A stretch of DNA of 64,000 nucleotides from a virus: positions 1-64,000 of IMG/VR virus record IMGVR_UViG_3300029959_000014; one strand, 5' to 3'. Of the stretch, positions 517 to 64,000 are shown piece after piece. Under the pieces are notes generated by a model. It had not been told where the DNA came from and searched no databases. It was given only the letters and a program-made list of their open reading frames with translations. Both the position numbers and the translations under genes were made by a program. How positions within the stretch are numbered: position 1 is the stretch's first letter; every line of letters starts with the position of its first letter.

Positions 517-582
517 ATTTAAATAATATAAGTTATATTATAAAAAGATTACGGTCCAACCACTAGTTTTATATAACGGCAT

Positions 583-662
583 GACCAATATGTATGTGCC
601 CAACAGTAATAGAATGACAACAAGGAAGAGGGATCTTTCCTTTTGTTGTTTTGTTATGATGG
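583..662 (+). repeat. dispersed ~90-nt intergenic repeat, copy A (ATGTATGTGCCCAA ... hairpin ... TTTTGTTGTTTTGTTATGATGG)
   Basis: The conserved 5' and 3' blocks are shared with copies at 29201-29288, 54587-54670, 30474-30555 (inverted) and a partial copy at 6576-6600. The central segment forms a different but complementary hairpin in each copy. Confidence 0.6.
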
Positions 663-778
663 AATTGTGGCTACGTGTTCGCTCTTTTGTTAAACTAACT
701 CATTTACAGTAGTTTGAACGATATTTATATTGACTCATATAAATATTTAAATATATAAAAGATAAATTAATAATCTAT

Positions 779-5226: not shown

Positions 5227-6078
5227 TTACTCACTCGATGTTGCATTAACGTTGGTAACTTCGTCTTCAACTGCTTGTTGTGAGGTTTGATTGTCCACCA
5301 CTGTTTTGTTAGATGCATATCCATCCACAGTTGTAGTGTTGAGAACTTTGTTGTAGGCATCTTTGAAACCGGTGTATGAGGTCTTGTAACCTGCCTCATA
5401 ACCACCAGTGGATGAATTAATCTGGGTGTTGTCGTGCTTGATGATGTCGTTTTCGTAGCCATATGATGTATCGGACTTGTTAAATCCTTTGATTGCACTT
5501 GAGTGGAAGTCACGATATGCATAACCCTGATCGGCAGCAACATACAGATCATTAATCATGGTGTCATCAACAGTTCCCGTAGTGGAATCCAATTGCACGT
5601 TTCCAGAGGCCATTGAACTGAACTTTCCACTAACACGCTGTTCACTTGGATACCTTGAAGTCGATAGATTGCTGTCCATAGCCACGATGTTTCCAGCAGC
5701 ATCACAAATAACATCTGGACGATTGCTTTTGAGATCGGTGATACCTGATGTAGCGTCAAAATTTATCATACCGAGTGTATCGACATTTGCCACATTCTTA
5801 TATACATTGGAAGTTGCCGCACTAACAGTTACAGATTCTGTGTGTGCTGTTCTCCCAAGTGTCAAGATTGTTTGACTGTTGCCTTGTTCATTTAATGTTC
5901 CAGCAATCTGCCCAAACTTGTAACTTCCATCCAGCGTGGAACTATACACAGCGGTTCTAGAAGTAATACTATCGCTTTGCCCATACGATTCAAATTTGGC
6001 TGCTGCAAGTGATGGCGCCACTATAATCATCAGACAAAGCGTAATGAAAGTTATGTGTTGTAAAAGTTGTAGTTTCAT
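5227..6078 (-). CDS. secreted Ser/Thr/Asn-rich protein (signal peptide)
   Basis: An N-terminal cleavable-type hydrophobic leader is followed by a low-complexity S/T/N/G-rich body, a candidate envelope or glycoprotein. Confidence 0.5.
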   Translation of the reverse strand: MKLQLLQHITFITLCLMIIVAPSLAAAKFESYGQSDSITSRTAVYSSTLDGSYKFGQIAGTLNEQGNSQTILTLGRTAHTESVTVSAATSNVYKNVANVDTLGMINFDATSGITDLKSNRPDVICDAAGNIVAMDSNLSTSRYPSEQRVSGKFSSMASGNVQLDSTTGTVDDTMINDLYVAADQGYAYRDFHSSAIKGFNKSDTSYGYENDIIKHDNTQINSSTGGYEAGYKTSYTGFKDAYNKVLNTTTVDGYASNKTVVDNQTSQQAVEDEVTNVNATSSE

Positions 6079-6534: not shown

Positions 6535-6546
6535 TTTCGGCGCGAA
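6535..6546 (-). promoter_or_regulatory. upstream GC element TTCGCGCCGAAA (gene orientation)
   Basis: This is one of at least 4 copies placed about 50-75 nt upstream of start codons. Confidence 0.4.
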
Positions 6547-6713
6547 GAATAGAAAACTGACGGATGTAGCCTAGCAACATAACAACGAAAAAGAAAACCA
6601 CAAAGAGGCATGTGGCTTTCTGTGACGTATGTTAGTAATGGGGGGGTACATACAGGTGGTTGTTCACGTTATATAAATGTTGTGTTCTAGTTGTAGAAGT
6701 CAAAAGGTAAACA

Positions 6714-9059
6714 TTAGAAGCCAAATTTTTGTAGATTGGTTTGACCTTTTATTGCTGTGTTCCATTCAATGTCAACTGCCCAGAAATATGATTCAAGTTT
6801 CTTCTTTATGGTTTTTTCAGCCATTAATTTCCAATCTACTAGATGTGATATTTGTGAGGTATCAAATCCATCATCTATACATATTGTTTCTCCATGTTTA
6901 AGGTGGACCAATCTTGGTTTTTCTCCTTCTTGGATTGTATAGTTGAAGTGTTGTAATGCATAGGTTTTCCCATCAGCCCAAGCATTCTTTTCACCATTGT
7001 AATTGGTCTTACGAAGTTCTCTAGGGATGGATATATCGTAGATATTGGCTGTTCCATCAAGAACCGATCGGTAATGATCACGGACGAATTTTGTTGCTTT
7101 TTCAACTTCACCTTTAAGTAGAGTTGTTTCTAATAAATAAGATAGACACTGTTTGGTCATTATTGAATTATCTGAACGTTTTATTTCAAGTCCCATGAAT
7201 TTAAATTCATCGCAATCTCTACCTTCTTCCCAGATGAGATGACCAGCATACTTCTTCTTACTAGCCTGTGATCTATCATTGGATTTTGGCTTAAAGATTA
7301 TACGACGAAATAATTTTTCAGATTTCAATTTGAAATGGATTTTACATCCTTGTTCATCGGACCACTTTACTAATTCTTCATTTAACCATTTTTCAAAGTA
7401 TAAACATTCGGAGCCTGTTTTGACCTCAGAAAAGAAAACGGAGTCCGTATCGCCGTAGATTACCGATTTCCCCTTCAATTTGACGAGTTCTTGAATATGT
7501 TTATTGATCTTTTGCCCAGTGGCAGTTACGAATGCTGCTTTTTCTTCATCATAACATTCAGATGACTCTGCGCCCATAATTCCATAAATAGAGTTCACCA
7601 GAGCCTTTGCTGCGGAATCACGTGCACTAGCACCGTCTAATCCACGATTCTTCTGATCTCTATAGACTTCACGCAGATCCATAAGTTTTTGAGTGGACTT
7701 GTGAATTATTCCATCGCAGTCACTAGAAAGTTCGTAGGCTAAAATTATGTGTGGGTAAAGGGAATTCAAGTCAACTGTTGCTACCCACTCATGTACACCG
7801 AGTTTTGGAGTGACAACTAATGCACCTGGAAACTTCGGTCCATCATCTTCATCGTCACCTTTGTATTTACGGCGAGGAAGGGGTTTGATGCCTTCATGTC
7901 GAACATAGGTGGCAATGATGGTGCTGTTGTGTAGACTTTCAGTAATTTTGTTCCCTGCGATAAATCGTATGGATTCAAAGAATTTGTAGAGTCCAAGTTT
8001 CTTGTCAATTACTTTGAGGGCCTTAATATCGTTTTTGCAGTATGCTATGAAATCATCCCATCGTTCAGCAACAATAATATCATTGATGATTGGCCCAAGA
8101 TCTTGATATGTGTATGCTGCTTCTTTTAGAAGTGATTTGTCAGATATGACTGATTTAAGACCATTAGATTCTCTTTGACCTTTACCAACATTGTATTTTT
8201 TGAATGCTTCCATCATATCGAGACATGCACGACCAGGAAGATAGGATCTGAATTGTTCACGCTTCTTATATATGGTTATCTTCGTTGATGGTTCAGCATA
8301 ACGACATAGACTTTTCTTTAGTGTTCCTTGGGTTCGTAGAATTTTAGCACGATTAATAATATATGGTATGTCGAATTGATCACTGTTCCATGCAGCAAGA
8401 ATATCTGGATTAAGTTCTTGGATATAAGCCATTACCATTTGGTAGAGTTCTTGTTCAGTCTCACACATGAATTGATCGGGATCATTTGATTTACCAATTG
8501 CGTAAGTGAATACGACTTCCTTGTCATTGTAGTTGTTGCCAATTTGGATAGATACGATTGGGGCAGTTGCTTCTTTTGGTCCAGTAAATCCACCAGTATT
8601 GTCCCAAGTCTCAATATCAAAATACATTACAAGGGGATCCATAGGATGATCGACTTCAACTGGAATTGGCTTATTGTCTATTACTTTGTAAGCATAACGA
8701 ATTTTATGATCGATCAGGAATCGCTTATCAAATAATACATCGCTTTCACGAGTGAACGAATATCCAAGATCTCGAACATCTCGAACATCAGTAGGAATGT
8801 TTACAATAACTTTTCTAATTTCGTTATGTTTATAGTCTAATAGGATTTCATCTTCAATTCGTTTAATTGCTGGATGAGAAAACTTTGTTGCTTCATTAGC
8901 AGGCACATATAAGTATGGTTCATATGGAAATGAATGAGTTGCAGTGACCATGGGATCTTCGTAACATCGAGAATAGAGATTTACAATTGGTATACCACTA
9001 TGTCTGTCAATGTAATAACCAGATTCCATGACCACATAAGTGCGATCATCAGCATTCAT
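6714..9059 (-). CDS. polB: family B DNA polymerase
   Basis: Exo I FDIET, motif A DLNSLYP, motif B KALVNSIYG and motif C YGDTDS are all present in order. At 781 aa it is compact. Confidence 0.92.
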   Translation of the reverse strand: MNADDRTYVVMESGYYIDRHSGIPIVNLYSRCYEDPMVTATHSFPYEPYLYVPANEATKFSHPAIKRIEDEILLDYKHNEIRKVIVNIPTDVRDVRDLGYSFTRESDVLFDKRFLIDHKIRYAYKVIDNKPIPVEVDHPMDPLVMYFDIETWDNTGGFTGPKEATAPIVSIQIGNNYNDKEVVFTYAIGKSNDPDQFMCETEQELYQMVMAYIQELNPDILAAWNSDQFDIPYIINRAKILRTQGTLKKSLCRYAEPSTKITIYKKREQFRSYLPGRACLDMMEAFKKYNVGKGQRESNGLKSVISDKSLLKEAAYTYQDLGPIINDIIVAERWDDFIAYCKNDIKALKVIDKKLGLYKFFESIRFIAGNKITESLHNSTIIATYVRHEGIKPLPRRKYKGDDEDDGPKFPGALVVTPKLGVHEWVATVDLNSLYPHIILAYELSSDCDGIIHKSTQKLMDLREVYRDQKNRGLDGASARDSAAKALVNSIYGIMGAESSECYDEEKAAFVTATGQKINKHIQELVKLKGKSVIYGDTDSVFFSEVKTGSECLYFEKWLNEELVKWSDEQGCKIHFKLKSEKLFRRIIFKPKSNDRSQASKKKYAGHLIWEEGRDCDEFKFMGLEIKRSDNSIMTKQCLSYLLETTLLKGEVEKATKFVRDHYRSVLDGTANIYDISIPRELRKTNYNGEKNAWADGKTYALQHFNYTIQEGEKPRLVHLKHGETICIDDGFDTSQISHLVDWKLMAEKTIKKKLESYFWAVDIEWNTAIKGQTNLQKFGF

Positions 9060-9818: not shown

Positions 9819-10523
9819 TCACTGGTAACTACACCTTATTGATTCGGGAGTTATTTCAACACCAGGGTTAAGGTTCTTCACACAAAGATCCCAACGTTGT
9901 TCATGAGTCATATCATCAAAGTCACTGTAGCCTTCGTCATCAATTGGAAGTCCACTTAAACTTACATTTGGGAATCCCTCACACACTGAATATGACATTA
10001 CAATGAGATCAACGTCATCTCGTTCACACAAACTAATAACGTCATCCCAACCCATGTCTTGTCGTAGGATTTTTTTTTCTAATGCTTGTTTAATGAGGTT
10101 ACTGAACCATGTAAAGTTTTCTTTCTTGATGTGTGCGTAGATTTCCATTTGAGCAGACATTTGGCCTATTAAGCACATAACATCACTACCATACAGGGAA
10201 TTCATTGTAAGGAACCAAGGCCACGATAACAACCATTCACCCTCATATTTGATTTTATGGTTATCCATTCCAGTATGTAATGCAGTAATTATGTGTTTTA
10301 TGTCATCTGGTTTTAAATGAGATTTTGACAATACATCTTGTAAGTAATTAATTTCAATCCAATTACTGAATGGTTCATCATCTAAATTGTAGGATGATAA
10401 TTTATTATACAATATTCCAGTTCCAATTTGTTTGTCAAGGAAATGTAATAGGTGTGCTTCTCTTCCAGAAACTTCTACATCCCCAATATCAACATTCCTT
10501 GTATTAAAATAAATTCTAGACAT
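9819..10523 (-). CDS. hypothetical protein (234 aa)
   Basis: It is a long ORF in the array with no recognised motif. Confidence 0.45.
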   Translation of the reverse strand: MSRIYFNTRNVDIGDVEVSGREAHLLHFLDKQIGTGILYNKLSSYNLDDEPFSNWIEINYLQDVLSKSHLKPDDIKHIITALHTGMDNHKIKYEGEWLLSWPWFLTMNSLYGSDVMCLIGQMSAQMEIYAHIKKENFTWFSNLIKQALEKKILRQDMGWDDVISLCERDDVDLIVMSYSVCEGFPNVSLSGLPIDDEGYSDFDDMTHEQRWDLCVKNLNPGVEITPESIRCSYQ

Positions 10524-12156: not shown

Positions 12157-12351
12157 TTATCGCTCCTTTGTATTTATCATTCCAAACCATACTATAACTG
12201 GAAATACTACTCCTGTTAAAATTCCAAACACTAATAAAGTTCGTTCATTGACATTGTATAAACCAGATATAGCCATTCCAATACATGCTCCATAGAACAA
12301 TAACAGACCAATCATCACACTAAATTTTTCAAATACATCCATAACATTCAC
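12157..12351 (-). CDS. small two-TM membrane protein
   Basis: It is strongly hydrophobic. Confidence 0.35.
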   Translation of the reverse strand: MNVMDVFEKFSVMIGLLLFYGACIGMAISGLYNVNERTLLVFGILTGVVFPVIVWFGMINTKER

Positions 12352-12566
12352 CGCAATGCTTTATAATTCCATTGCACGAGATTTCCACAAACTTCACATC
12401 GAGGCGAAACACCAGTAATTAGATGATCAGTGTCCATGATATTTACATTGCGTTGACAAATTGGACAGTAATATACCGGTATAACGTGTTCAGGATTCGA
12501 TGACAACTTTCTAAAGAGATCTTCACGATCTTTAAAATATTGTTCATATCGTTTTGTGTTAAACAT
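12348..12566 (-). CDS. small zinc-ribbon protein (CPICQ...CEVCG)
   Basis: It has two CxxC pairs. Confidence 0.4.
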   Translation of the reverse strand: MFNTKRYEQYFKDREDLFRKLSSNPEHVIPVYYCPICQRNVNIMDTDHLITGVSPRCEVCGNLVQWNYKALR

Positions 12567-12575
12567 AATTATACT

Positions 12576-12806
12576 TTATACCCAATCAATTCTAAATTCA
12601 TCATATATTCCAGATTCTTTCTCCAATGCTTCAATAATCATTTCATGACATCTAATTAATTCATCTTTTATATATGGTCCATATTCTCCAATAGATGGAA
12701 CAGTCGACTTATATATGATACCAATTGGTTCATTTTTATACTGGAATGAAAAATTTAATTGATATTCATATGGAGATAATCTTTCTAAATTAACATCGTT
12801 AGACAT
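12576..12806 (-). CDS. hypothetical small protein
   Basis: It is a co-oriented ORF. Confidence 0.35.
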   Translation of the reverse strand: MSNDVNLERLSPYEYQLNFSFQYKNEPIGIIYKSTVPSIGEYGPYIKDELIRCHEMIIEALEKESGIYDEFRIDWV

Positions 12807-12814
12807 AATACACC

Positions 12815-13021
12815 TTACTTGTATGATGGAATTTTACTCATGATCCATGCAATTAATTTTTCCTTGAGATCGCTATTTCGAGTGCGATGAAGGTAGACGT
12901 TATAAACGGTTGCTATACAAAGTCCAAGTATACATATGATGCCGATGATCATTGTGAGATAAGGTTCCATACTAGTATTTTGGCGTTGAGGTTTAAAATA
13001 GTTACGTTTTATTAAATCCAA
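12815..13021 (-). CDS. small TM protein
   Basis: It has a central hydrophobic helix. Confidence 0.35.
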   Translation of the reverse strand: MDLIKRNYFKPQRQNTSMEPYLTMIIGIICILGLCIATVYNVYLHRTRNSDLKEKLIAWIMSKIPSYK

Positions 13022-13653
13022 TCTATAGTATCATTAATAGATGATTTATATTCTTGTGTTATATTATCAATAATTTGAGTTTTTTCTATATCTTCATTTA
13101 ATTTTTTAATTCGAATGTTATGTTCACTTTCTATTATTTCCTTTTCTAATCTATAGTTATAATCATCAAATAACGAATTCAATCTCTCAATGGTGATTTG
13201 TTTAATTATGTCATCATAAAACCAAGTATATTTACTACATACATGAAGCAATGAATCATTTCTTGATGAATATGTAATTGGTTGTATAAATTGCAACACT
13301 AACAACTTTTTTCCATCTATTAATTCACAATTAGGAGTAAATCTATTATATTTTTGGTTAATTGTTGGGCTTTCTCCATCTATTAAATATACATTTACAA
13401 AAGTATCACAATAATATTCTTTGCTTATAAATAATTCTATATACAATTTATTTTTATAAATTATTTGTATTTTACCATCAAAATATTTTTCATAATACCC
13501 ACTATACATTATTGAGATAATGAAAGAAATGAAGTTGATAGGAAGAATATCATTAGCATCTAAATTTGGAATTTGTTCATTTCTCTCAATACTTAATGTA
13601 AATAAATCAACATGTTCCATTTCCTCGTGACTATATATGTGCTCAAATGACAT
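13012..13653 (-). CDS. hypothetical protein (213 aa)
   Basis: It is a co-oriented ORF of low complexity. Confidence 0.4.
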   Translation of the reverse strand: MSFEHIYSHEEMEHVDLFTLSIERNEQIPNLDANDILPINFISFIISIMYSGYYEKYFDGKIQIIYKNKLYIELFISKEYYCDTFVNVYLIDGESPTINQKYNRFTPNCELIDGKKLLVLQFIQPITYSSRNDSLLHVCSKYTWFYDDIIKQITIERLNSLFDDYNYRLEKEIIESEHNIRIKKLNEDIEKTQIIDNITQEYKSSINDTIDWI

Positions 13654-13704
13654 AATATAGGTATTGATGTTTGGATTTAAAATAGTTGCGGGGTTTTATA
13701 AAAA

Positions 13705-15081
13705 TTAGATGAGTATTCCTACTCGTTTTCTAATGTCTGATATGTTTTCATCAATTAGAAGTTTTCCGTTGCTGTAGACGAGTGGTAGGTTGTCGAATCG
13801 ACCTGCCTTTGATTCTTTACCTGGAGTAGTTTTATTGACATTGTGCCATACTCCATTACGCTTTACCGCGCTGCACTTCATAGCAAATCGATTGGTGTCC
13901 CTGTTGTGATTTTGAAGAAGATTTCCACCACAACCAAATATAATGTTACTTGGAGCAAACTTATGCTTGATTACAGTTTCATTGTAGATTTTCTCTACCA
14001 TTGCAATATCGACACCATCGCCAATAATTATACTGATATGAGGATCTAGAACTTTATAGCCATGATCGTTTATGGTTCCTCCATAACAATCCCAAAGTGC
14101 TTGGAGAATTACTGGGGCATTTATTTCATGGCTTCCAGAATCAGGACGACACACAATACGACCTTTGCGATTCATTATCAATGACTTTAGTTCTTTACAG
14201 AAGTATTCATTGATTGCATGTTTCCAATCATAACTATCAATGACCAGTGAAATTATACAATCATCACCATATAGTTTATCGGTGGTTTCAATGATGTGTC
14301 GATAAGCCTCTAGTTCGTGATCTTTACCCCATGAAGTGATCGTGCTGTGTTCTGCTGCAACCACAGATACTCCGATTGGGAAAGTGTTGTCTGGGTGATA
14401 ATACCAACGAATTTTGTCTATTGCTGGGTTGTTGTCAGTTCCAATGAAATTTAGAAGATGTCCGATTCCACACATTTCAGCGCTCATCAATGAACTTGCA
14501 CCACGAAGGCCAAAGTCATTGAGGTGAACTGGGCTTACATCTTCGCCCGCTAGATCACAATACCTCTTAATGGTTTTATAAAATGCATGACTGATAGTTG
14601 CAGTATTGGTCATCGCATAGCAATGCATGAGCAAACTCTCAACGTAATTAGTAAGCCATGGAACTTTCGGATCAGTGTTTTCCAGTGCTAATACAGGAGT
14701 TCCTGGTTTTACAATGGTTCCTTCTGGGAGCGCATAAATGTTTATCGGTAAGTTTCCACCATGGGCCTTTTTAATGTGTTCCCAACCTTCATAATTGAAG
14801 AATGGTTTTCCGAATATCCCATTGCTAATTATACTGGATTCTTCAATAAAATCACGATCTATATAACTATCAATGAACCCATATTCTTTGAGGACAAATT
14901 GAAGTCCACACCATACAATTTCATTGAATTGTGCTCCATTACGTGGTTCCATGTAACTATACATTACTTCAAGATCCGGTGGATACTGAAAGTGGTGAGT
15001 TTGCTTGTAAGCATCCGTCAAATTGGGAAATGATCTTTCTGGCATAGTTCTCATCAACTTATAATTGTTATAACTGCTCAT
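13705..15081 (-). CDS. NAMPT: nicotinamide phosphoribosyltransferase (NAMPT)
   Basis: There is collinear similarity to NAMPT across the whole protein: DAYKQTHHFQYPP, ALPEGTIV.PGTPVLALENTDP...WLTNY, DFGLRG, AAEHSTITSWGKDHE, RPDSG, IIIGDGVD and IFGCGGNLLQ. Confidence 0.93.
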   Translation of the reverse strand: MSSYNNYKLMRTMPERSFPNLTDAYKQTHHFQYPPDLEVMYSYMEPRNGAQFNEIVWCGLQFVLKEYGFIDSYIDRDFIEESSIISNGIFGKPFFNYEGWEHIKKAHGGNLPINIYALPEGTIVKPGTPVLALENTDPKVPWLTNYVESLLMHCYAMTNTATISHAFYKTIKRYCDLAGEDVSPVHLNDFGLRGASSLMSAEMCGIGHLLNFIGTDNNPAIDKIRWYYHPDNTFPIGVSVVAAEHSTITSWGKDHELEAYRHIIETTDKLYGDDCIISLVIDSYDWKHAINEYFCKELKSLIMNRKGRIVCRPDSGSHEINAPVILQALWDCYGGTINDHGYKVLDPHISIIIGDGVDIAMVEKIYNETVIKHKFAPSNIIFGCGGNLLQNHNRDTNRFAMKCSAVKRNGVWHNVNKTTPGKESKAGRFDNLPLVYSNGKLLIDENISDIRKRVGILI

Positions 15082-29123: not shown

Positions 29124-29200
29124 TACTATTTATATAAGTTAATTTTATAATATATAAAACTAACTGTTTAACACGATCAATATCTTTATATAGTGTTAGT

Positions 29201-29288
29201 GACCAATATGTATGTGCCCAAAGTAACACAACGATAGAGAGAACCAAATGCACGTTGTTTGGTTTTCTTTGTTGTTTTGTTATGGTGG
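29201..29288 (+). repeat. dispersed repeat family, copy B
   Basis: It reads GACCAATATGTATGTGCCCAAAGTAAC, then an ACAACG...CGTTGT hairpin, then TTTGTTGTTTTGTTATGGTGG. Confidence 0.6.
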
Positions 29289-29328
29289 TCTTATTCTGTA
29301 ACCACTTGCATTTACGCCGAGAAAATAG

Positions 29329-29658
29329 TTATGGTAGTTCAAACACTTCATACAATGGATGTGATGAATTTGAAACCAGTGATTTATCATATTCTCGTTT
29401 AAGCATCATACCGCTGTTAATTGTTGTATAGACTTTTAATCCTGCAATTTTGATTCTATAAACTTGTTTGTCTTTAACCAATTCTTTCAAAACATGTAAT
29501 ATACAATGTCTCTTATGTTGTGGGAATGTTTCTTTCAAGGCATCTAAAGAATATAGATGGTCATTATGAGTCATCAAAAATATCATTACATCACTTTCGA
29601 TCGACATATAAAAGAATAGTTGAATTTGATTTATTCTTTCTTGATGTTTGCGCAACAC
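29329..29658 (-). CDS. hypothetical protein
   Basis: It is a co-oriented ORF. Confidence 0.35.
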   Translation of the reverse strand: MLRKHQERINQIQLFFYMSIESDVMIFLMTHNDHLYSLDALKETFPQHKRHCILHVLKELVKDKQVYRIKIAGLKVYTTINSGMMLKREYDKSLVSNSSHPLYEVFELP

Positions 29659-29870
29659 TCAATGTTATACAGAATCAATGGAGAATTGTCAACTGGATGG
29701 TTATACCTACTTGATGATATGTCAACTCGTGAAAGTTCATGAACATATTCTTTTCTAGTATCAAGCATAATTTGAGTAATTTTGCCGGTAGAAACTCTAC
29801 TACAATCTCCAGTTTTTGGATAATGTGTTACATCAATTATATAACGTTCATGGATTTCTTGATTTTCCAT
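29631..29870 (-). CDS. hypothetical small protein
   Basis: It is a co-oriented ORF. Confidence 0.3.
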   Translation of the reverse strand: MENQEIHERYIIDVTHYPKTGDCSRVSTGKITQIMLDTRKEYVHELSRVDISSSRYNHPVDNSPLILYNIECCANIKKE

Positions 29871-30278: not shown

Positions 30279-30473
30279 GGCGCGAAAATCATTAGTTGGT
30301 TGAATATTGAGCAAATCGATTAATACTATTGTATTCCTGTTCAACCACACCAAAAGGTTACGATTACCATTATATAAATCTAGTGCACATGTTAGTTCGA
30401 AGTGCGAACAATTCCAGTTATGAACTAATAAGCAATATTAAATGGTTGCAATCGAAGAATAGGACGAAACACT

Positions 30474-30555
30474 CGCCATAACAAAACAACAAAAAAGAAG
30501 AAAGAACGAGCCTTTCAACTTTGTATTGTTTCGCTACTTGGGCACATACATATAA
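30474..30555 (-). repeat. dispersed repeat family, copy C (inverted orientation)
   Basis: Its reverse complement reads TATATGTATGTGCCCAAGTAGC...TTTTTTGTTGTTTTGTTATGGCGAG. Confidence 0.55.
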
Positions 30556-30703
30556 GATGTTGACATTATAAAAGCATTATGTTGGTGTGAAAATAAAAAA
30601 TTGATTTGTAGGAGGATCATTGTGAGGATATTTCTAGAGAGGACATTTAACTAGTAACAAACTGATCGTCTACATTACCCATATATAAAACTATATGGTG
30701 ATA

Positions 30704-33102: not shown

Positions 33103-33393
33103 AACTAGTATATTTGGTATGATGTTTTATAAAACTATTACATGTAAAGTTGATGTGATCACTAATTTTATATACGGACAATCACAACTATGTATTGTTA
33201 CTACTACTTTGACGGGCGGTATGTGACAAGAACCCCGCTTCAATTCTTGAAGCAAGAGTCTTCATAGCAAGAAACGCGCTTTATAGGTATAAACCTATTT
33301 AAGCGGCACTTGCGATTTAATGCTCTTATTTGTTAGGTGGTGTTTTGCTCCCATCACTTAACCATTAGTTTAATTGGCGTGAAGAATACATTC

Positions 33394-33407
33394 TTTCGCG
33401 CCGAAAT
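33394..33407 (+). promoter_or_regulatory. upstream GC element TTTCGCGCCGAAAT, 10 nt before the promoter box
   Basis: It is centred about -52 from the ATG of 33451. The same element lies upstream of several minus-strand genes. Confidence 0.45.
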
Positions 33408-36768: not shown

Positions 36769-36849
36769 AGTGGATTGATGATGGTGAAAGGAATTGAACC
36801 TTCGTTAACCAACATTAGACGATAGCAAACCGGTCAGACTATCGTAGTA
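36769..36849 (-). ncRNA. tRNA-like element a (7/7-bp acceptor GATGGTG/CACCATC plus T-arm GAAGG-TTCAATT-CCTTT, 81 nt)
   Basis: It has a perfect acceptor helix and a canonical T-loop, but the 49-nt interior (containing a 7-bp ACGATAG/CTATCGT stem) does not give a canonical D-arm and anticodon-arm fold. Confidence 0.4.
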
Positions 36850-36859
36850 ATACACCATC

Positions 36860-37187: not shown

Positions 37188-37251
37188 TAACTGATGGGTG
37201 GATTCGAACCAACCCGTTGCACACCCATTGTGTCATCGGTTACGGTTGCCA
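37188..37251 (-). ncRNA. tRNA-like minihelix b (acceptor AACCGAT/ATCAGTT, T-arm GGTTCGAATCC)
   Basis: It has a T-loop TTCGAAT and a 6/7 acceptor pairing. Only ~19 nt separate the 5' acceptor strand from the T-arm, so the D and anticodon arms are absent. Confidence 0.4.
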
Positions 37252-37290
37252 CATTTGCGCAGATGTGGTTTACAACCATTTTATCAGGTT
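37243..37290. repeat. 48-nt direct repeat, copy 1
   Basis: It contains a CCACAT-loop8-ATGTGG hairpin and supplies the 5' acceptor strand of minihelix b. It is 47/48 identical to 37551-37598. Confidence 0.6.
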
Positions 37291-37403
37291 TTGGATTTGT
37301 TCCTGGGAAATTAAACCTGCAAAACGCCCACGGTTAACGAGCGTGCCTCGGCGGTTTAACAACTTTGATAATGGGGTTCTAAACCTGCTGAATTGAGACC
37401 CAC

Positions 37404-37510: not shown

Positions 37511-37559
37511 ATAACCGATTGGGGATTCGAACCCCTTAATTCCCATTTGGTTTATCGGT
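37511..37559 (-). ncRNA. tRNA-like minihelix d (acceptor AACCGAT/ATCGGTT 7/7, T-arm GGGG-TTCGAAT-CCCC)
   Basis: It has a perfect 7-bp acceptor and a 17-nt linker to the T-arm. Its 5' strand lies within the 48-nt repeat copy 2. Confidence 0.45.
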
Positions 37560-37598
37560 TACGGTTGCCACATTTGCGCAGATGTGGTTTACAACCAT
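37551..37598. repeat. 48-nt direct repeat, copy 2
   Basis: It is a near-identical copy of 37243-37290. It is followed by a GNRA-capped hairpin GTTGGGATT-GCAA-AATCCAAC. Confidence 0.6.
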
Positions 37599-37784
37599 TT
37601 ATCCGTTTGTTGGATTTGCAATCCCAACCAGGCGTCTTACATTCCCTGTCACCTGCATTCCATCGTCGTAAAGACTTGCCTGCAGGGAAACCATCATACA
37701 AGATTTGACCTTGCACGATGGCTAATTCACTTACCGGGTCATCACTCCCGTATACATTATATTACACGTAATATTATTTAATAG

Positions 37785-54350: not shown

Positions 54351-54586
54351 TCATGATTATACACCTATTTCAATAAAATGCTGAATCATCATAATGTCTA
54401 ATAAACATCAAACTATATGAATCAGCAAAATGTTCACTAGGACTTTCAAGTTCATCTATCAATCTCTTTAATGCAAATATAATAATTTGCTTATCTCGTA
54501 TGTCATCTAATTTTAAATCTGGCATTAAAGTTTACCTTTTTAATTTTGATAGTAATCCATAAGTTTTTATAACGTGAAAAATTTAC

Positions 54587-54670
54587 CTGTATGTGCCCAT
54601 AAGTAACTTAACGAAAAAGAAAACATGGACACGATCCTTGTTTTCTTCTTTGTTTTGTTATGAAGTTGCT
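54587..54670 (+). repeat. dispersed repeat family, copy D
   Basis: It reads CCTGTATGTGCCCATAAGTAAC, then an AAAGAAAACA...TGTTTTCTT hairpin, then TTTGTTTTGTTATGAAG. Confidence 0.55.
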
Positions 54671-54686
54671 GTTGTTATCGTCGATT

Positions 54687-57227: not shown

Positions 57228-58166
57228 TTACTTGTTTGCACTGTATTCCATTGCCAACTGAAATCCTTTTTCATCGAGAGCACGACCATTTGAACTTTTG
57301 AAAATGTAACCAGCACGGAGAAGGTGAGGTTCAACTGTGCGTATTAGAACTTCTTTTTCTACTTGCAGTTGTAGGGCGATGCTTTCCACACCAGTTTTTT
57401 CACCATTAAATACTTCGAATAGTGTTGTAATGTATGCTCTATCAATTGTGTTAAGGCCATGTTCATCTATACCATTGAGAGCCAATGCATCAATTACAAT
57501 TTGTTCACTAATTTCATTGTAGTTGCTATAATGCATTTTGATATGGTCACGGACTCTTCTGATGAGATTTTGGCTATCACGAGGAACTCCTTTAGATGCA
57601 CGAGAAATTACAGTGATGGCATCATGAGTTAGATTGAGATTTTCGCTGATGACATTATTGATTACGATGGTGTCCAGTTCATCACTAGTGTAATTTTCAA
57701 GTCTAATTTGAATGGGGAATCTATTGTAGAATGGTGTTGCTATTTTTGATATCTCGGTGGTGGCACCTATGAGTGTGATTTTTTTAGCATCGAGAAGTAT
57801 AGGTGCTTTACCTGGAAAATTAAACTGGACTTGTCCCTGATCAAAGAATTTGTAGAGTCCTTCGGCTTGATCAGTAACCAAATTGTGAATTTCATCCATA
57901 AGAAGGATTGAAAAGTCCTTCATCTTCATTAACTTGATGTTTAACTTACCGATGTTTTTACCGCTGCAAAGAATTTCCTCAAATTCAACGCCCATTTCAT
58001 TAGCAATGACTTTGGCGAGTGTGGATTTTCCAGCACCGCTAAATCCAGATATGAATACATGATCTAATGGTTCATTACGTGATTTTGCTGATGCAATGGC
58101 CTCTCGAAGCATAGCCTTAACATCTTCATTACCGATGTAGTCATCAAATGTGTTAATAATTTTCAT
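57228..58166 (-). CDS. ruvB: RuvB-like Holliday-junction AAA+ ATPase
   Basis: It is collinear with bacterial RuvB. DYIGNEDVK...ASAKSRNEPLDHVFISGFSGAGKSTLAKVIANEMGV matches EYVGQ..V...AAK.RGE.LDHVLL.GPPGLGKTTLA.IIANEMGV. LMDEIHNL, ITLIGATT...NRF, KGVPRDSQNLIRRVRD and EPHLLRAGYI also align. Confidence 0.85.
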   Translation of the reverse strand: MKIINTFDDYIGNEDVKAMLREAIASAKSRNEPLDHVFISGFSGAGKSTLAKVIANEMGVEFEEILCSGKNIGKLNIKLMKMKDFSILLMDEIHNLVTDQAEGLYKFFDQGQVQFNFPGKAPILLDAKKITLIGATTEISKIATPFYNRFPIQIRLENYTSDELDTIVINNVISENLNLTHDAITVISRASKGVPRDSQNLIRRVRDHIKMHYSNYNEISEQIVIDALALNGIDEHGLNTIDRAYITTLFEVFNGEKTGVESIALQLQVEKEVLIRTVEPHLLRAGYIFKSSNGRALDEKGFQLAMEYSANK

Positions 58167-62648: not shown

Positions 62649-63098
62649 TTACTCTGCACTGCATTCCATTGGATTAGGGATAATCTCTACTGTGAACTTT
62701 GGAATCTCCTCACGGGTATTTGCTTGGAGTGCATCCATAAACCACTGTTCAAGTTCTACGTGCTTGGCTTTCTCGGCCTGACAGATTGCCTTTTCTTGTG
62801 AGCGACATGAAGTAATGATTGGATCAGCATTATATTGTTCATCGAAATCTGGAAGTTTCATGATATCTCGAAGATCGCCTTCGCTTATTTCTTTTCGTTC
62901 ATGAACTGGAAGACCCGTTGCCTGAAGTTTTTTATAAATATCACCATAAGTAGCACTCTTAATCTGCTTTTTACGATCATTCTTCTGTGCAACGATTGGT
63001 GTGCGAACGTTGCTGTAGTAGGTTGATACCTTGGAACTGTAGATGTTGCGAAGTTCCTTGATCTGGGCTACTGATAGCCTTGTTTTGCTTGCTGTCAT
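62649..63098 (-). CDS. hypothetical basic protein
   Basis: It has a promoter box 21 nt upstream. Confidence 0.45.
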   Translation of the reverse strand: MTASKTRLSVAQIKELRNIYSSKVSTYYSNVRTPIVAQKNDRKKQIKSATYGDIYKKLQATGLPVHERKEISEGDLRDIMKLPDFDEQYNADPIITSCRSQEKAICQAEKAKHVELEQWFMDALQANTREEIPKFTVEIIPNPMECSAE

Positions 63099-63118
63099 AA
63101 CAGTAATGTTAGTGTGGA

Positions 63119-63128
63119 TATTATAAAA
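63119..63128 (-). promoter_or_regulatory. TTTTATAATA box
   Basis: It lies 20 nt upstream of the ATG of 62649-63098. Confidence 0.55.
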
Positions 63129-63154
63129 GAGTTTTGATAGTCAATCTACTAGTA

Positions 63155-63559
63155 TTATATTATACCTTCTAGAACTAGATCACAAAGAGCATCACATCGT
63201 TTAAGCATGATATGTTCACGCGGGGACCATTCAAAGTTTATGGTATTGAATTTTTTAATGATGTATTGAACTTGAGCATGTAAAGGTTTTAAATGTTCAC
63301 TTTTAACCTGATATTTTCCTGTGATTTGGAATATAGTTAACTGACTATCACTTGTTAATGTAAGATCTTTAATTCCTCCTGCTAATGCCGATGTAAGACA
63401 TAGGATGATACTAGTATATTCAGACTGATTATTACTATAGTTCCCAAAATAAAAGGAGTTGCTATATACCTCTTCATTTTTATCATTACAAATTATAAAG
63501 GCTCCAGCACCATGAGAATTATTCATTCTACTTCCTCCATCAGCGTATGCATAAAACAT
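63155..63559 (-). CDS. rnhA: RNase H1-type ribonuclease H
   Basis: The DEDD residues sit in YADGGS, NNQSEYTSII, LTSDSQ and CDALCD, with RNase H1-like spacing. Confidence 0.8.
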   Translation of the reverse strand: MFYAYADGGSRMNNSHGAGAFIICNDKNEEVYSNSFYFGNYSNNQSEYTSIILCLTSALAGGIKDLTLTSDSQLTIFQITGKYQVKSEHLKPLHAQVQYIIKKFNTINFEWSPREHIMLKRCDALCDLVLEGII

Positions 63560-63633
63560 AATGGTATTGTATGTTTGGGATTTTATTTATACATTGGTAA
63601 TGGTGGAATTTTAAATATTTATAATTACCTGTT

Positions 63634-63762
63634 TGTGCACATCCCAGACAGAATCGGGTTTCCTGTCAATTCTCTTCTGTTTGAGGTGAATTGTTGATGG
63701 AAGTATACCGAAATGTTTATATAATAGTAGTTACATATATTATTGTGCACATCCCAGACAGA
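63634..63762. repeat. pair of 20-nt direct repeats TTGTGCACATCCCAGACAGA spaced 109 nt apart in an ORF-free terminal region
   Basis: Exact copies occur at 63634-63652 and 63743-63762. Each is preceded by a TATA-like AT stretch. Confidence 0.5.
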
Positions 63763-64000
63763 TGAAGGTTATACTTCAATAACTCTCACTGTTTGTTGGA
63801 ATGGTGTTCTATTCTAGTTAAATTGTCAGTGTTTTATATAATTAGTTTTATAATATACGGCAACGTATCTTACTAGTGGTGATCATCATTAGTTTTGATA
63901 TTTACACTAGAAGGGAAGATTGCCCTGCTTGGATTACTCATGAGATGGTAGAGATTGGGGTGATTACGCCAAGGAACAATGAGACAATTATTGATACTGA

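Follow-up and report, generated by a model that had tools for sequence, protein, structure and literature searches.

The stretch analyzed here, hereafter the window, comprises the 64,000 nt at positions 1 to 64,000 of the IMG/VR record IMGVR_UViG_3300029959_000014. It has a G+C content of 33.7%, and its genes, which lie almost all on the minus strand, include a family-B DNA polymerase, a helicase, a nicotinamide phosphoribosyltransferase, an RNA ligase and numerous small open reading frames (ORFs). Dispersed between these genes is the subject of this work, a repeated unit of about 110 bases composed of a −10-type promoter-like box (TTTATATAAY), a conserved 5′ box, a 22-29 bp hairpin and a U-rich tail. 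The copies form one family with a common structure, strand specificity, promoter- and terminator-like anatomy, conserved positions and concerted evolution, and their sequences most likely reveal a new, unstudied family of small phage RNAs.

The initial annotation had listed five repeat loci and read them as a dispersed family of structured small noncoding RNA candidates with conserved ends and a covarying hairpin. All five are present where it placed them (Table 1), and that reading is supported by covariation, strand asymmetry, the anatomy of the ends and the existence of more copies. The 3′ block TTTGTTGTTTTGTTATGGTGG occurs three times in the window when up to three mismatches are allowed, versus zero occurrences expected, and an nhmmer profile built from the copies gave exactly five full matches in the window, with E-values between 1e-23 and 2.5e-29. 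The locus at 6576-6600, described as a partial inverted copy, turned out with nhmmer to be a full-length, more diverged unit. Likewise, the unit is longer than the ~90 nt first assigned to it: alignment with the flanks showed that it opens with the TTTATATAAY box, located 13-15 nt upstream of TGTATGTGCCC.

Table 1. Coordinates of the repeat units, of their counterparts in related phages and of other features (window positions unless a locus is named; CM, covariance model; MFE, minimum free energy; SD, Shine-Dalgarno)
Feature	Position	Strand	Remarks
Copy 1, whole unit	561-668	+	nhmmer E 7e-24; CM R1 75.4 bits
Copy 1, −10-type promoter-like box TTTTATATAAC	567-577	+	read from sequence
Copy 1, conserved 5′ box TGTATGTGCCC	591-601	+	predicted P(unpaired) 0.78
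Copy 1, long imperfect hairpin (AGTAAT...GTTATG)	605-658	+	MFE −22.2 kcal/mol, z −3.2
Copy 2	29178-29293	+	nhmmer E 2.5e-29; MFE −33.3 kcal/mol, z −5.5; both neighbouring genes on minus strand (antisense)
Copy 2, −10 box	29189-29194	+
Copy 2, 5′ box	29209-29219	+
Copy 2, hairpin	29222-29284	+
Copy 3	54560-54672	+	nhmmer E 4.7e-26; CM 84.8 bits; MFE −22.2 kcal/mol, z −4.2; antisense between two small minus-strand ORFs
Copy 3, −10 box	54568-54573	+
Copy 3, 5′ box	54588-54598	+
Copy 3, hairpin	54602-54662	+
Copy 4	30467-30581	−	nhmmer E 4e-26; inverted repeats I1/I3; same strand as flanking minus-strand genes
Copy 4, −10 box	30565-30570	−
Copy 4, 5′ box	30540-30550	−
Copy 4, hairpin	30477-30538	−
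Copy 5, full diverged unit	6565-6684	−	nhmmer E 1.4e-23; CM 55.9 bits
Copy 5, 5′ box GGGTACATACA	6644-6654	−
Copy 5, −10 box	6668-6673	−
Copy 5, hairpin	~6576-6636	−
Post-polymerase copy, phage A	L066 12330-12402		directly after polymerase stop
Post-polymerase copy, phage D	L080 12392-12464		directly after polymerase stop
Post-polymerase copy, phage B	L067 12992-13068		two opposite-strand ORFs between polymerase gene and copy
Post-polymerase copy, phage C	L078 12628-12704		two opposite-strand ORFs between polymerase gene and copy
Counterpart of copy 2, phage A	L072 4896-4979		same junction, antisense orientation
Counterpart of copy 2, phage B	L067 566-487		same junction, antisense orientation
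Counterpart of copy 4, phage A	L072 6120-6048
Example gene starts, SD-less class	52834, 32454, 31357, 22126, 11935, 11494, 9059, 63098, 39033, 38033	−	TTTTATAAT or TTTTATATAA
Example gene start, SD-less class	33451	+	TTTTATAAT or TTTTATATAA
GC-rich motif TTCGCGCCGAAAT	6536-6552	−	downstream of copy 5
GC-rich motif TTCGCGCCGAAAT	33385-33400	+
19-mer TGTGCACATCCCAGACAGA, two occurrences	63623-63690, 63716-63765	+	109 nt apart
Direct repeat of 89 nt, 80% identical	37211-37299, 37530-37618	+	with hairpin GGTTGCCACATTTGCGCAGATGTGGTTTACAACC
tRNA-like Rfam match	36779-36859	−	32 bits
Apparently non-coding 95-nt segment	36862-36956		85% identical to L066 9664-9758
RuvB-like ORF	57228-58166	−	PHROGs label clamp loader; full-length Pfam RuvB match (N-terminal, lid and C-terminal domains)
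RNase H-like (RVT_3) small gene	63155-63559	−	in relatives at L067 3509-3919, L078 1704-2111, L080 3531-3941

Pattern scans of IMG/VR located eight further copies on IMGVR_UViG_3300029959_000012, a contig of 66 kb, and metagenome contigs supplied a ninth, while the rest of that contig that was read contained no additional copy. This contig has no other DNA or protein similarity to the window, and its interpretation as a second phage was overturned by a bridging locus, L012, whose ORFs are 98-100% identical to window positions 62835-63750 and which then continues with 99.96% identity into the end of the contig. Because L012 bridges the two records, they are neighbouring pieces, separated by about 490 nt, of a single genome that measures at least 130 kb, so that nine more copies lie in the adjoining 66 kb and the census of the genome amounts to 14 copies in ~125 kb. 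The family thereby withstands the refuting condition of the initial annotation that the rest of the genome should contain no additional copies. Since GenBank phages gave zero nucleotide matches to the window, its DNA polymerase is only ~26% identical to the closest GenBank phage protein and one of its proteins, of 679 aa, is 59% identical to proteins of the BCP78/TsarBomba group of Bacillus phages, we judge the phage to be large, uncultured and only poorly related to known phages.

Relatives were found by a protein search with the polymerase, phage A lying on a contig of 135 kb and phage B on one of 133 kb. A scan of related viruses, which the initial annotation had proposed, revealed copies of the unit in four uncultured phages whose polymerases are 47-61% identical to that of the window: at least 11 in phage A (61% identity, ~75 kb read), three in phage B (60%), two in phage C (48%) and three in phage D (47%), with 22 kb read for each of the last three. 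A more distant relative, L079 (41% identity, 22 kb read), has zero copies. All the copies of the relatives share a common anatomy: a TATA-type box is followed after 12-15 nt by a GU-rich box with a terminal C-run, then by the hairpin and a U-rich tail. No element was found in GenBank phages, nor any real one in distant polymerase relatives in IMG/VR, and the eight pattern matches obtained in 185,579 bacterial and archaeal genomes included none that could be confirmed. With Rfam 15, the window gave no match at the gathering threshold except one tRNA elsewhere; at permissive E-values, there were only generic matches of long hairpins to microRNA precursors, scoring 10-21 bits versus gathering scores of 48-112. 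Two loci, L003 and L011, were discarded as chance pattern matches. A putative sixth window copy at 63623-63690 (CM score of 23 bits) was not counted, as the family hairpin is not formed there (z −1.1). The 19-mer TGTGCACATCCCAGACAGA occurs at this site and again nearby, each time past a TATA-type box; the site may represent a distinct small repeat or a degenerate member of the family.

The TTTATATAAY box is kept in 13 of the 14 copies, 13-15 nt upstream of the 5′ box. The latter has the consensus UGUAUGU-R-C-M-C, which across phages corresponds to a GU-rich stretch followed by a C-run, and its TGTATGT core shows no variation among the 25 distinct copies from this phage and phage A. Folding leaves the box UAUGUAUGUGCCCAA single-stranded: its mean probability of being unpaired in the family is 0.74, versus 0.23 for the remaining RNA, and the first 20-25 nt of the predicted RNA are predicted to be unpaired. 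An accessible conserved seed, a hallmark of sibling small RNAs, is therefore found here, with UGUAUGU in 25 of 25 copies and the GU-rich stretch plus C-run in three further phages. Homology between the copies decays ~45 nt upstream of the box and ~40 nt past the hairpin, with a weak CTATTCTTCG motif ~25 nt past the hairpin and no flanking direct repeats.

The spacing between the −10 box and the ATG inside the 5′ box resembles that seen in real genes of this phage devoid of a Shine-Dalgarno sequence, as does the TGT-ATG context, so that this ATG might mark the start of a tiny coding gene (ATG TGC CCA ...), either a leader peptide or a minigene. The box is nevertheless not a coding start, because the ATG is not conserved across phages, being missing in several copies of phages B, C and D (UAUAGUCCCC, UUGGGUACCCC, AUAGGUACCCC), and because the frames that open with it run for 3-52 codons, conserved neither in length nor in sequence. 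Furthermore, the second codon is Cys or Tyr through a non-synonymous change. The probability left to this explanation is negligible, and we consider it essentially excluded.

Regarding the hairpin, the initial annotation had confined it to the variable centre of the repeat. The hairpin itself stands, but the confinement does not, the conserved AGTAAC and GTTATG blocks pairing together, and the whole region between them forms one imperfect stem of 22-29 bp with a free energy of −22 to −33 kcal/mol and z-scores of −3.2 to −5.5 in the window copies. The covarying stem was confirmed on a structural alignment of the 14 copies made with the covariance model R1. In this alignment, 89.6% of the cells pair versus 80.1 ± 1.6% in shuffles, 35 cells are changed on both sides versus 15.3 ± 3.4, and the covariation score reaches 0.487, a value attained by none of the 500 shuffles (0.306 ± 0.028); controls with slid partners score 0.13-0.23. 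The signal is stronger with the 25 distinct copies obtained by adding those of phage A (91.2% of cells pairing versus 79.6 ± 1.2%; 67 cells changed on both sides versus 29.2 ± 4.9; 0 of 500 shuffles). Compensatory changes affect seven of the seven pairs of the upper stem. In the 11 pairs of the lower stem, variation consists almost entirely of A-U to G-U or C-G to U-G changes, and the 3′ arm looks conserved because both U and G have two possible pairing partners.

Transitions are thus neutral in the A/C-rich 5′ arm and break pairs in the U/G-rich 3′ arm, which results in a strong strand asymmetry. G·U pairs represent 47 of the 299 predicted pairs. The sense hairpins have free energies of −18 to −32 kcal/mol versus −8 to −20 kcal/mol for the antisense ones, a mean sense advantage of ~9 kcal/mol, and in 10 of the 14 copies the difference in stability between the sense hairpin and its less stable reverse complement amounts to 8-19 kcal/mol. 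In copy 1, which has five G·U pairs, the values are −19.4 and −10.0 kcal/mol. The sense strand also folds more stably in all 19 copies of the relatives. This asymmetry points to selection on an RNA made in one direction, not on a DNA palindrome.

The two ends of the unit resemble transcription signals, and both point in the same direction. TTTATAA and TATAATA are the top enriched 7-mers in the 30 nt preceding 199 predicted gene starts (p = 6e-11 and 7e-10), and the upstream box of the unit is a general gene-proximal signal of this phage, found ~22 nt upstream of many protein genes; in dozens of them, TTTTATAAT lies ~20-24 nt before the ATG without a Shine-Dalgarno sequence. A TTnnnn hexamer is visible by eye 16-19 nt upstream of the box in most copies. 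A generic sigma-70 scan flags only copy 4 (TTTTCA-17-TATAAT, 10/12) and misses the others because most of them end in TATAAC. At the other end, all 14 copies have terminator geometry, with a hairpin of −8.7 to −19.9 kcal/mol located 0-2 nt from UUUUGUUAUG and five or six U in the first eight positions, although a generic terminator scan flags only copies 2 and 5. In copy 1, the U-rich tail TTTTGTTATG follows the top of the hairpin, a −9.8 kcal/mol hairpin lying 1 nt from a tail with six U in eight. The antisense strand has no U-tract. The stable hairpin followed by a U-rich tract on the transcribed strand that typifies intrinsic terminators is therefore present, and so, at the level of sequence, are the own promoter and own terminator typical of sibling small RNAs.

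Several observations concern the gene leaders that carry the same upstream box. The genes with TTTTATAAT or TTTTATATAA 20-24 nt from the ATG form a large class and have an A/C-rich leader that often ends in ACTAGT(T)ATG, and other genes have ribosome-binding sites of the AAAGGTAAAC or GGAGG type; the very short leaders without Shine-Dalgarno sequence suggest that they mark one temporal gene class. The GC-rich motif TTCGCGCCGAAAT, located ~20 nt upstream of a TATA-type box, is probably the "GC upstream element" of the initial annotation, and related ACGCCGACAT strings occur in several leaders.

Analysis of the genomic context revealed that eight of the 14 copies follow a co-oriented gene at a distance of 0-123 nt, while five or six have no co-oriented gene upstream. 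Six have none downstream: two of these are antisense orphans, and in the other four the next gene or copy is convergent. The copies antisense to both neighbouring genes number two of 14 in this phage (29178-29293 and 54560-54672) and three of 11 in phage A; in such orphans, the sense orientation can therefore yield only their own short RNA. Three convergent pairs of copies flank zero, one or three small ORFs, copies 2 and 4 enclosing three. Copy 1 sits between the start of a minus-strand gene (516) and a plus-strand NUMOD3/HNH-like gene at 779, and copy 5 begins 30 nt past the stop of the polymerase gene (6714-9059). The next gene lies 70-500 nt beyond the unit and has its own promoter box. 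Ordinary terminators share neither a promoter box nor an invariant 5′ box. The suggestion that the copies mark insertion points of HNH homing endonucleases was abandoned, only copy 1 of the 14 abutting such a gene and nine other neighbouring ORFs having no endonuclease domain.

The order of promoter, promoter-proximal conserved box and terminator is typical of processive antitermination switches, such as the lambda PR′-qut-tR′ or nut/put systems. The units could accordingly be leader or attenuator modules that by default give a short terminated RNA, until a phage factor recognizing the box, as DNA or as RNA, allows read-through into downstream genes. A co-oriented gene does follow eight of the 14 copies, for example the HNH-like gene past copy 1 or a terminase-like ORF past L001 2611, and box variants specific to each genome (see below) would fit co-evolution with a phage-encoded factor. 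The six copies devoid of a co-oriented downstream gene and the promoter boxes carried by the downstream genes themselves argue against this mechanism, for which a non-systematic search identified no candidate antiterminator. We consider it unlikely.

Comparison of the gene junctions, based on the homology of the flanking genes, showed that six copies of the window phage have a counterpart in phage A at the corresponding junction and with matching orientation, and that two junctions are common with phage B, again with orientation kept. The post-polymerase copy is found in five of the five phages (this phage and phages A-D). The proteins flanking the shared junctions are 28-61% identical, and outside conserved coding sequence the phages show almost no other recognizable DNA similarity. 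Because positional counterparts persist despite this divergence, the units are old, stably placed and under constraint, and do not represent recent insertions. Only one or two gains or losses were observed between relatives: the copy at L066 13857-13928 has no window counterpart, and the L005 junction carries two copies versus one in phage A.

These differences, together with the dispersion of the copies in both orientations and exclusively in intergenic DNA, are what would be expected of selfish, non-autonomous elements of the miniature inverted-repeat transposable element (MITE) type, whose hairpin would simply result from inverted repeats at the termini. The long hairpin of the unit bears a superficial likeness to folded MITEs, for example Correia or bcr1. 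The unit is asymmetric, though, with the promoter box and the 5′ box on one side only, and neither inverted repeats at its ends nor target-site duplications are visible. Moreover, the six positional counterparts, the G·U strand asymmetry, which points to selection on RNA and not on DNA ends, and the zero copies in the bacterial genomes and GenBank phages searched make a mobile origin highly improbable, and we regard it too as essentially excluded.

The conserved blocks of the unit have evolved in concert within each phage. The 5′ box and the 3′ tail read CCUGUAUGUGCCC and GUUAUGG in this phage, AUUUGUAUGUGCC and GUUUAGAG in phage A, GGUCCCCCC or GGGUACCCCCC and UUGUUAAG in phage B, and UGUAGGGUACCCCC and GUUAAGG or GUUAUGA in phage D, and UGUAUGUGCCC, UGUAGGGUACCCCC and UAUGGUCCCCCC are phage-specific variants of the box. 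In six of six ortholog pairs, the conserved blocks are closer to paralogues of the same genome (0.61-0.77) than to the positional counterpart (0.45-0.66), while the apical parts of the hairpins are ~30% identical in all comparisons. Such concerted evolution reflects either gene conversion or the tracking of one co-evolving partner by all copies.

The composition of the unit, a promoter-like box and a stem-loop repeated between the ORFs of a large virulent phage, recalls the PeSL and PmSL elements, composite promoter-stem-loop cassettes of T4-type phages (Arbiol et al. 2010, PMC2839356; Comeau et al. 2014, PMC4122927). By analogy, the copies might be cis-acting punctuation of transcription, the hairpin ending or attenuating transcripts, the promoter box restarting or insulating transcription, and the short RNA being a by-product; their repeated homology would then be a substrate for recombination that shuffles small ORFs. 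Consistent with this, the eight copies past a co-oriented gene and the terminator geometry of all copies are suited to punctuation, convergent copy pairs surround 0-3 ORFs in both this phage and phage A, and PeSLs likewise have a phage-specific consensus (PMC4122927). ORF insertions or deletions also adjoin the element at three or four of the six syntenic junctions, in comparisons between distant relatives: the window ORFs at 29329-29870 are absent from phage A, and ORFs separate the polymerase gene from the copy in phages B and C, in addition to the extra copy at L005. On the other hand, the order of promoter, 25-nt conserved box and hairpin means that the promoter fires into its own terminator while the next gene is separately promoted, and punctuation assigns no role to the invariant unpaired 5′ box. 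Five of the 25 copies are antisense to both neighbours, one being kept so in three phages, and stable positional counterparts are at odds with frequent shuffling. Punctuation as the sole function is possible but, in our view, doubtful.

All the contexts are best accommodated if the units are autonomous small RNA genes whose hairpins also end upstream transcripts, a reading to which we assign a probability of about 0.5. Each copy would then be a self-contained small transcription unit. The TTTATATAAY box would start the RNA ~6-8 nt before the unpaired 5′ box, the RNA would fold into the 22-29 bp hairpin with its A/C-rich 5′ arm and U/G-rich 3′ arm, and the upper hairpin together with the tail UUUUGUUAUG would end transcription to give an RNA of 65-85 nt. 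The shared exposed box would interact with a single partner common to all copies, which may be an RNA of the host or a protein of the host or the phage, and in the eight copies just past a co-oriented gene the same hairpin would terminate the transcript of that gene.

Several points weigh against this proposal. Transcription and both RNA ends are predictions, and most copies have TATAAC, without the final T usual in a sigma-70 −10 hexamer. Because eight of the 14 copies occupy the very position expected of an ordinary terminator, a purely cis-acting role may account for part of the conservation, and gene conversion alone could produce the concerted evolution. Action of the box in trans is less certain than the existence of RNA genes. 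No target was found inside the phage. The box complements the leaders without Shine-Dalgarno sequence no better than it complements genome windows chosen at random (p = 0.45), the rank of ACATACA among leader 7-mers is only 607, and complementary sites of at least eight bases are absent from phage A outside the elements. A pairing of the box, as antisense, with those leaders that have CACATACA past the −10 box was examined and is not supported, the real box having beaten shuffled boxes but failed the random-window control; box matches of 7-10 nt occur in only four to six window leaders, and the pairing is at best a tentative lead.

More speculatively, the family might be the first multi-copy regulon of sibling small RNAs in a virulent phage, with at least 14 tags per genome, exposed and near-identical, made in bulk against one host component. 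These tags might sequester a host RNA-binding protein or a defence sensor, or their C-run might pair with G-rich ribosome-binding sites of host mRNAs, and a tag co-evolving with its partner in each phage lineage would account for the concerted evolution. This is a tentative idea to which we attach a low probability.

Other features of the window and of the related phages deserve mention. The 89-nt direct repeat lies in a gene-poor stretch and adjoins the tRNA-like match, for which ARAGORN made no call. No other apparently non-coding DNA is as well conserved between this phage and phage A as the neighbouring 95-nt segment, whose counterpart is intergenic just upstream of the polymerase gene of phage A. 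The polymerase homologues P0005, P0011, P0014, P0018 and P0022 of the clade have 1150-1180 aa and carry intein and homing-endonuclease domains, whereas the window polymerase has neither. In L079, a gene with a Ro60/TROVE domain (12301-14357) is located directly downstream of the polymerase gene after a gap of 460 nt, which is a candidate site for a Y-RNA-like gene. Phage C carries a TnpB-like ORF (L078 5432-6559; OrfB_IS605 and Cas12f1-like TNB domains) among its replication genes. The RVT_3 gene is kept across the clade and is opposite in strand to its neighbours in three relatives. Given its domains, the ORF labelled clamp loader more likely encodes a branch-migration ATPase. No RegA-like translational repressor was found among ten scanned ORFs (55-64 kb region, plus 5227-6078 and 9819-10523).

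To our knowledge, the phage small RNAs described so far are single genes, nearly all of them from temperate phages or prophages. A keyword search of a 2025 review found multiple copies mentioned only for DicF in pathogenic E. coli strains (PMC12197685). The conserved positions, compensatory stems and homogenized tag of the present family imply strong selection on an RNA-level function absent from databases. If this function is exerted in trans, it would represent a novel means by which a lytic phage manipulates its host; if in cis, the units would define the transcription-unit grammar of an unstudied phage group and extend the PeSL concept beyond T4-type phages. Under either reading, the covariance model from this work makes it possible to annotate the family.

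LhrC1-5 of Listeria, Qrr1-4/5 of Vibrio and OmrA/OmrB of E. coli are sibling small RNAs that combine a shared exposed seed with a covarying terminator, and RsaE/RoxS of Firmicutes are small RNAs with a UCCC or C-rich motif. Like these RNAs, the units occur as several paralogues per genome, with their own promoter and Rho-independent terminator, here predicted, and a length of 65-85 nt; they also have a single-stranded 5′ motif with a C-run and a middle part that is variable in sequence and conserved in structure. They differ in being carried by an apparently virulent large phage, in at least 14 copies per genome and with no Rfam similarity, and in that the predicted RNA body is nearly all one long hairpin doubling as terminator. 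In phage lambda, the oop RNA and the PR′-tR′ 6S RNA arise from a promoter followed within ~80-200 nt by an intrinsic terminator, and such short terminated RNAs are, depending on context, an antisense regulator or the substrate of an antitermination switch. The units share the predicted arrangement of a promoter closely upstream of an intrinsic terminator, but oop and 6S are single-copy, with the cII mRNA and the Q protein as partners, whereas the units have at least 14 copies with a shared box.

ERIC, bcr1 of the Bacillus cereus group and the Correia elements of Neisseria are dispersed repeats of ~100-150 nt with long imperfect hairpins and strand-specific G·U pairs, and some repeats of this type carry promoters or terminators. 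The units are similarly dispersed, with a long imperfect hairpin and strand-specific G·U pairs, but have neither the terminal inverted repeats nor the target-site duplications of those elements, and their positions are kept across distant relatives, whereas the presence of those elements varies between strains. The PeSLs have in common with the units a multi-copy intergenic promoter consensus and a stem-loop terminator with G-T pairs in large virulent phages, a lineage-specific consensus and an association with insertions, deletions and small ORFs whose function is unknown. The stem-loop of a PeSL overlaps the −35 and −10 boxes or lies directly beside them, and the last part of the cassette is formed by the Shine-Dalgarno sequence of the following gene and its start codon (PMC2839356). 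In contrast, the hairpin of the units starts ~35 nt past the −10 box, from which it is separated by a conserved unpaired box of 25 nt, the next gene is separately promoted, some units are antisense to all their neighbours, and their positions are kept in distant relatives.

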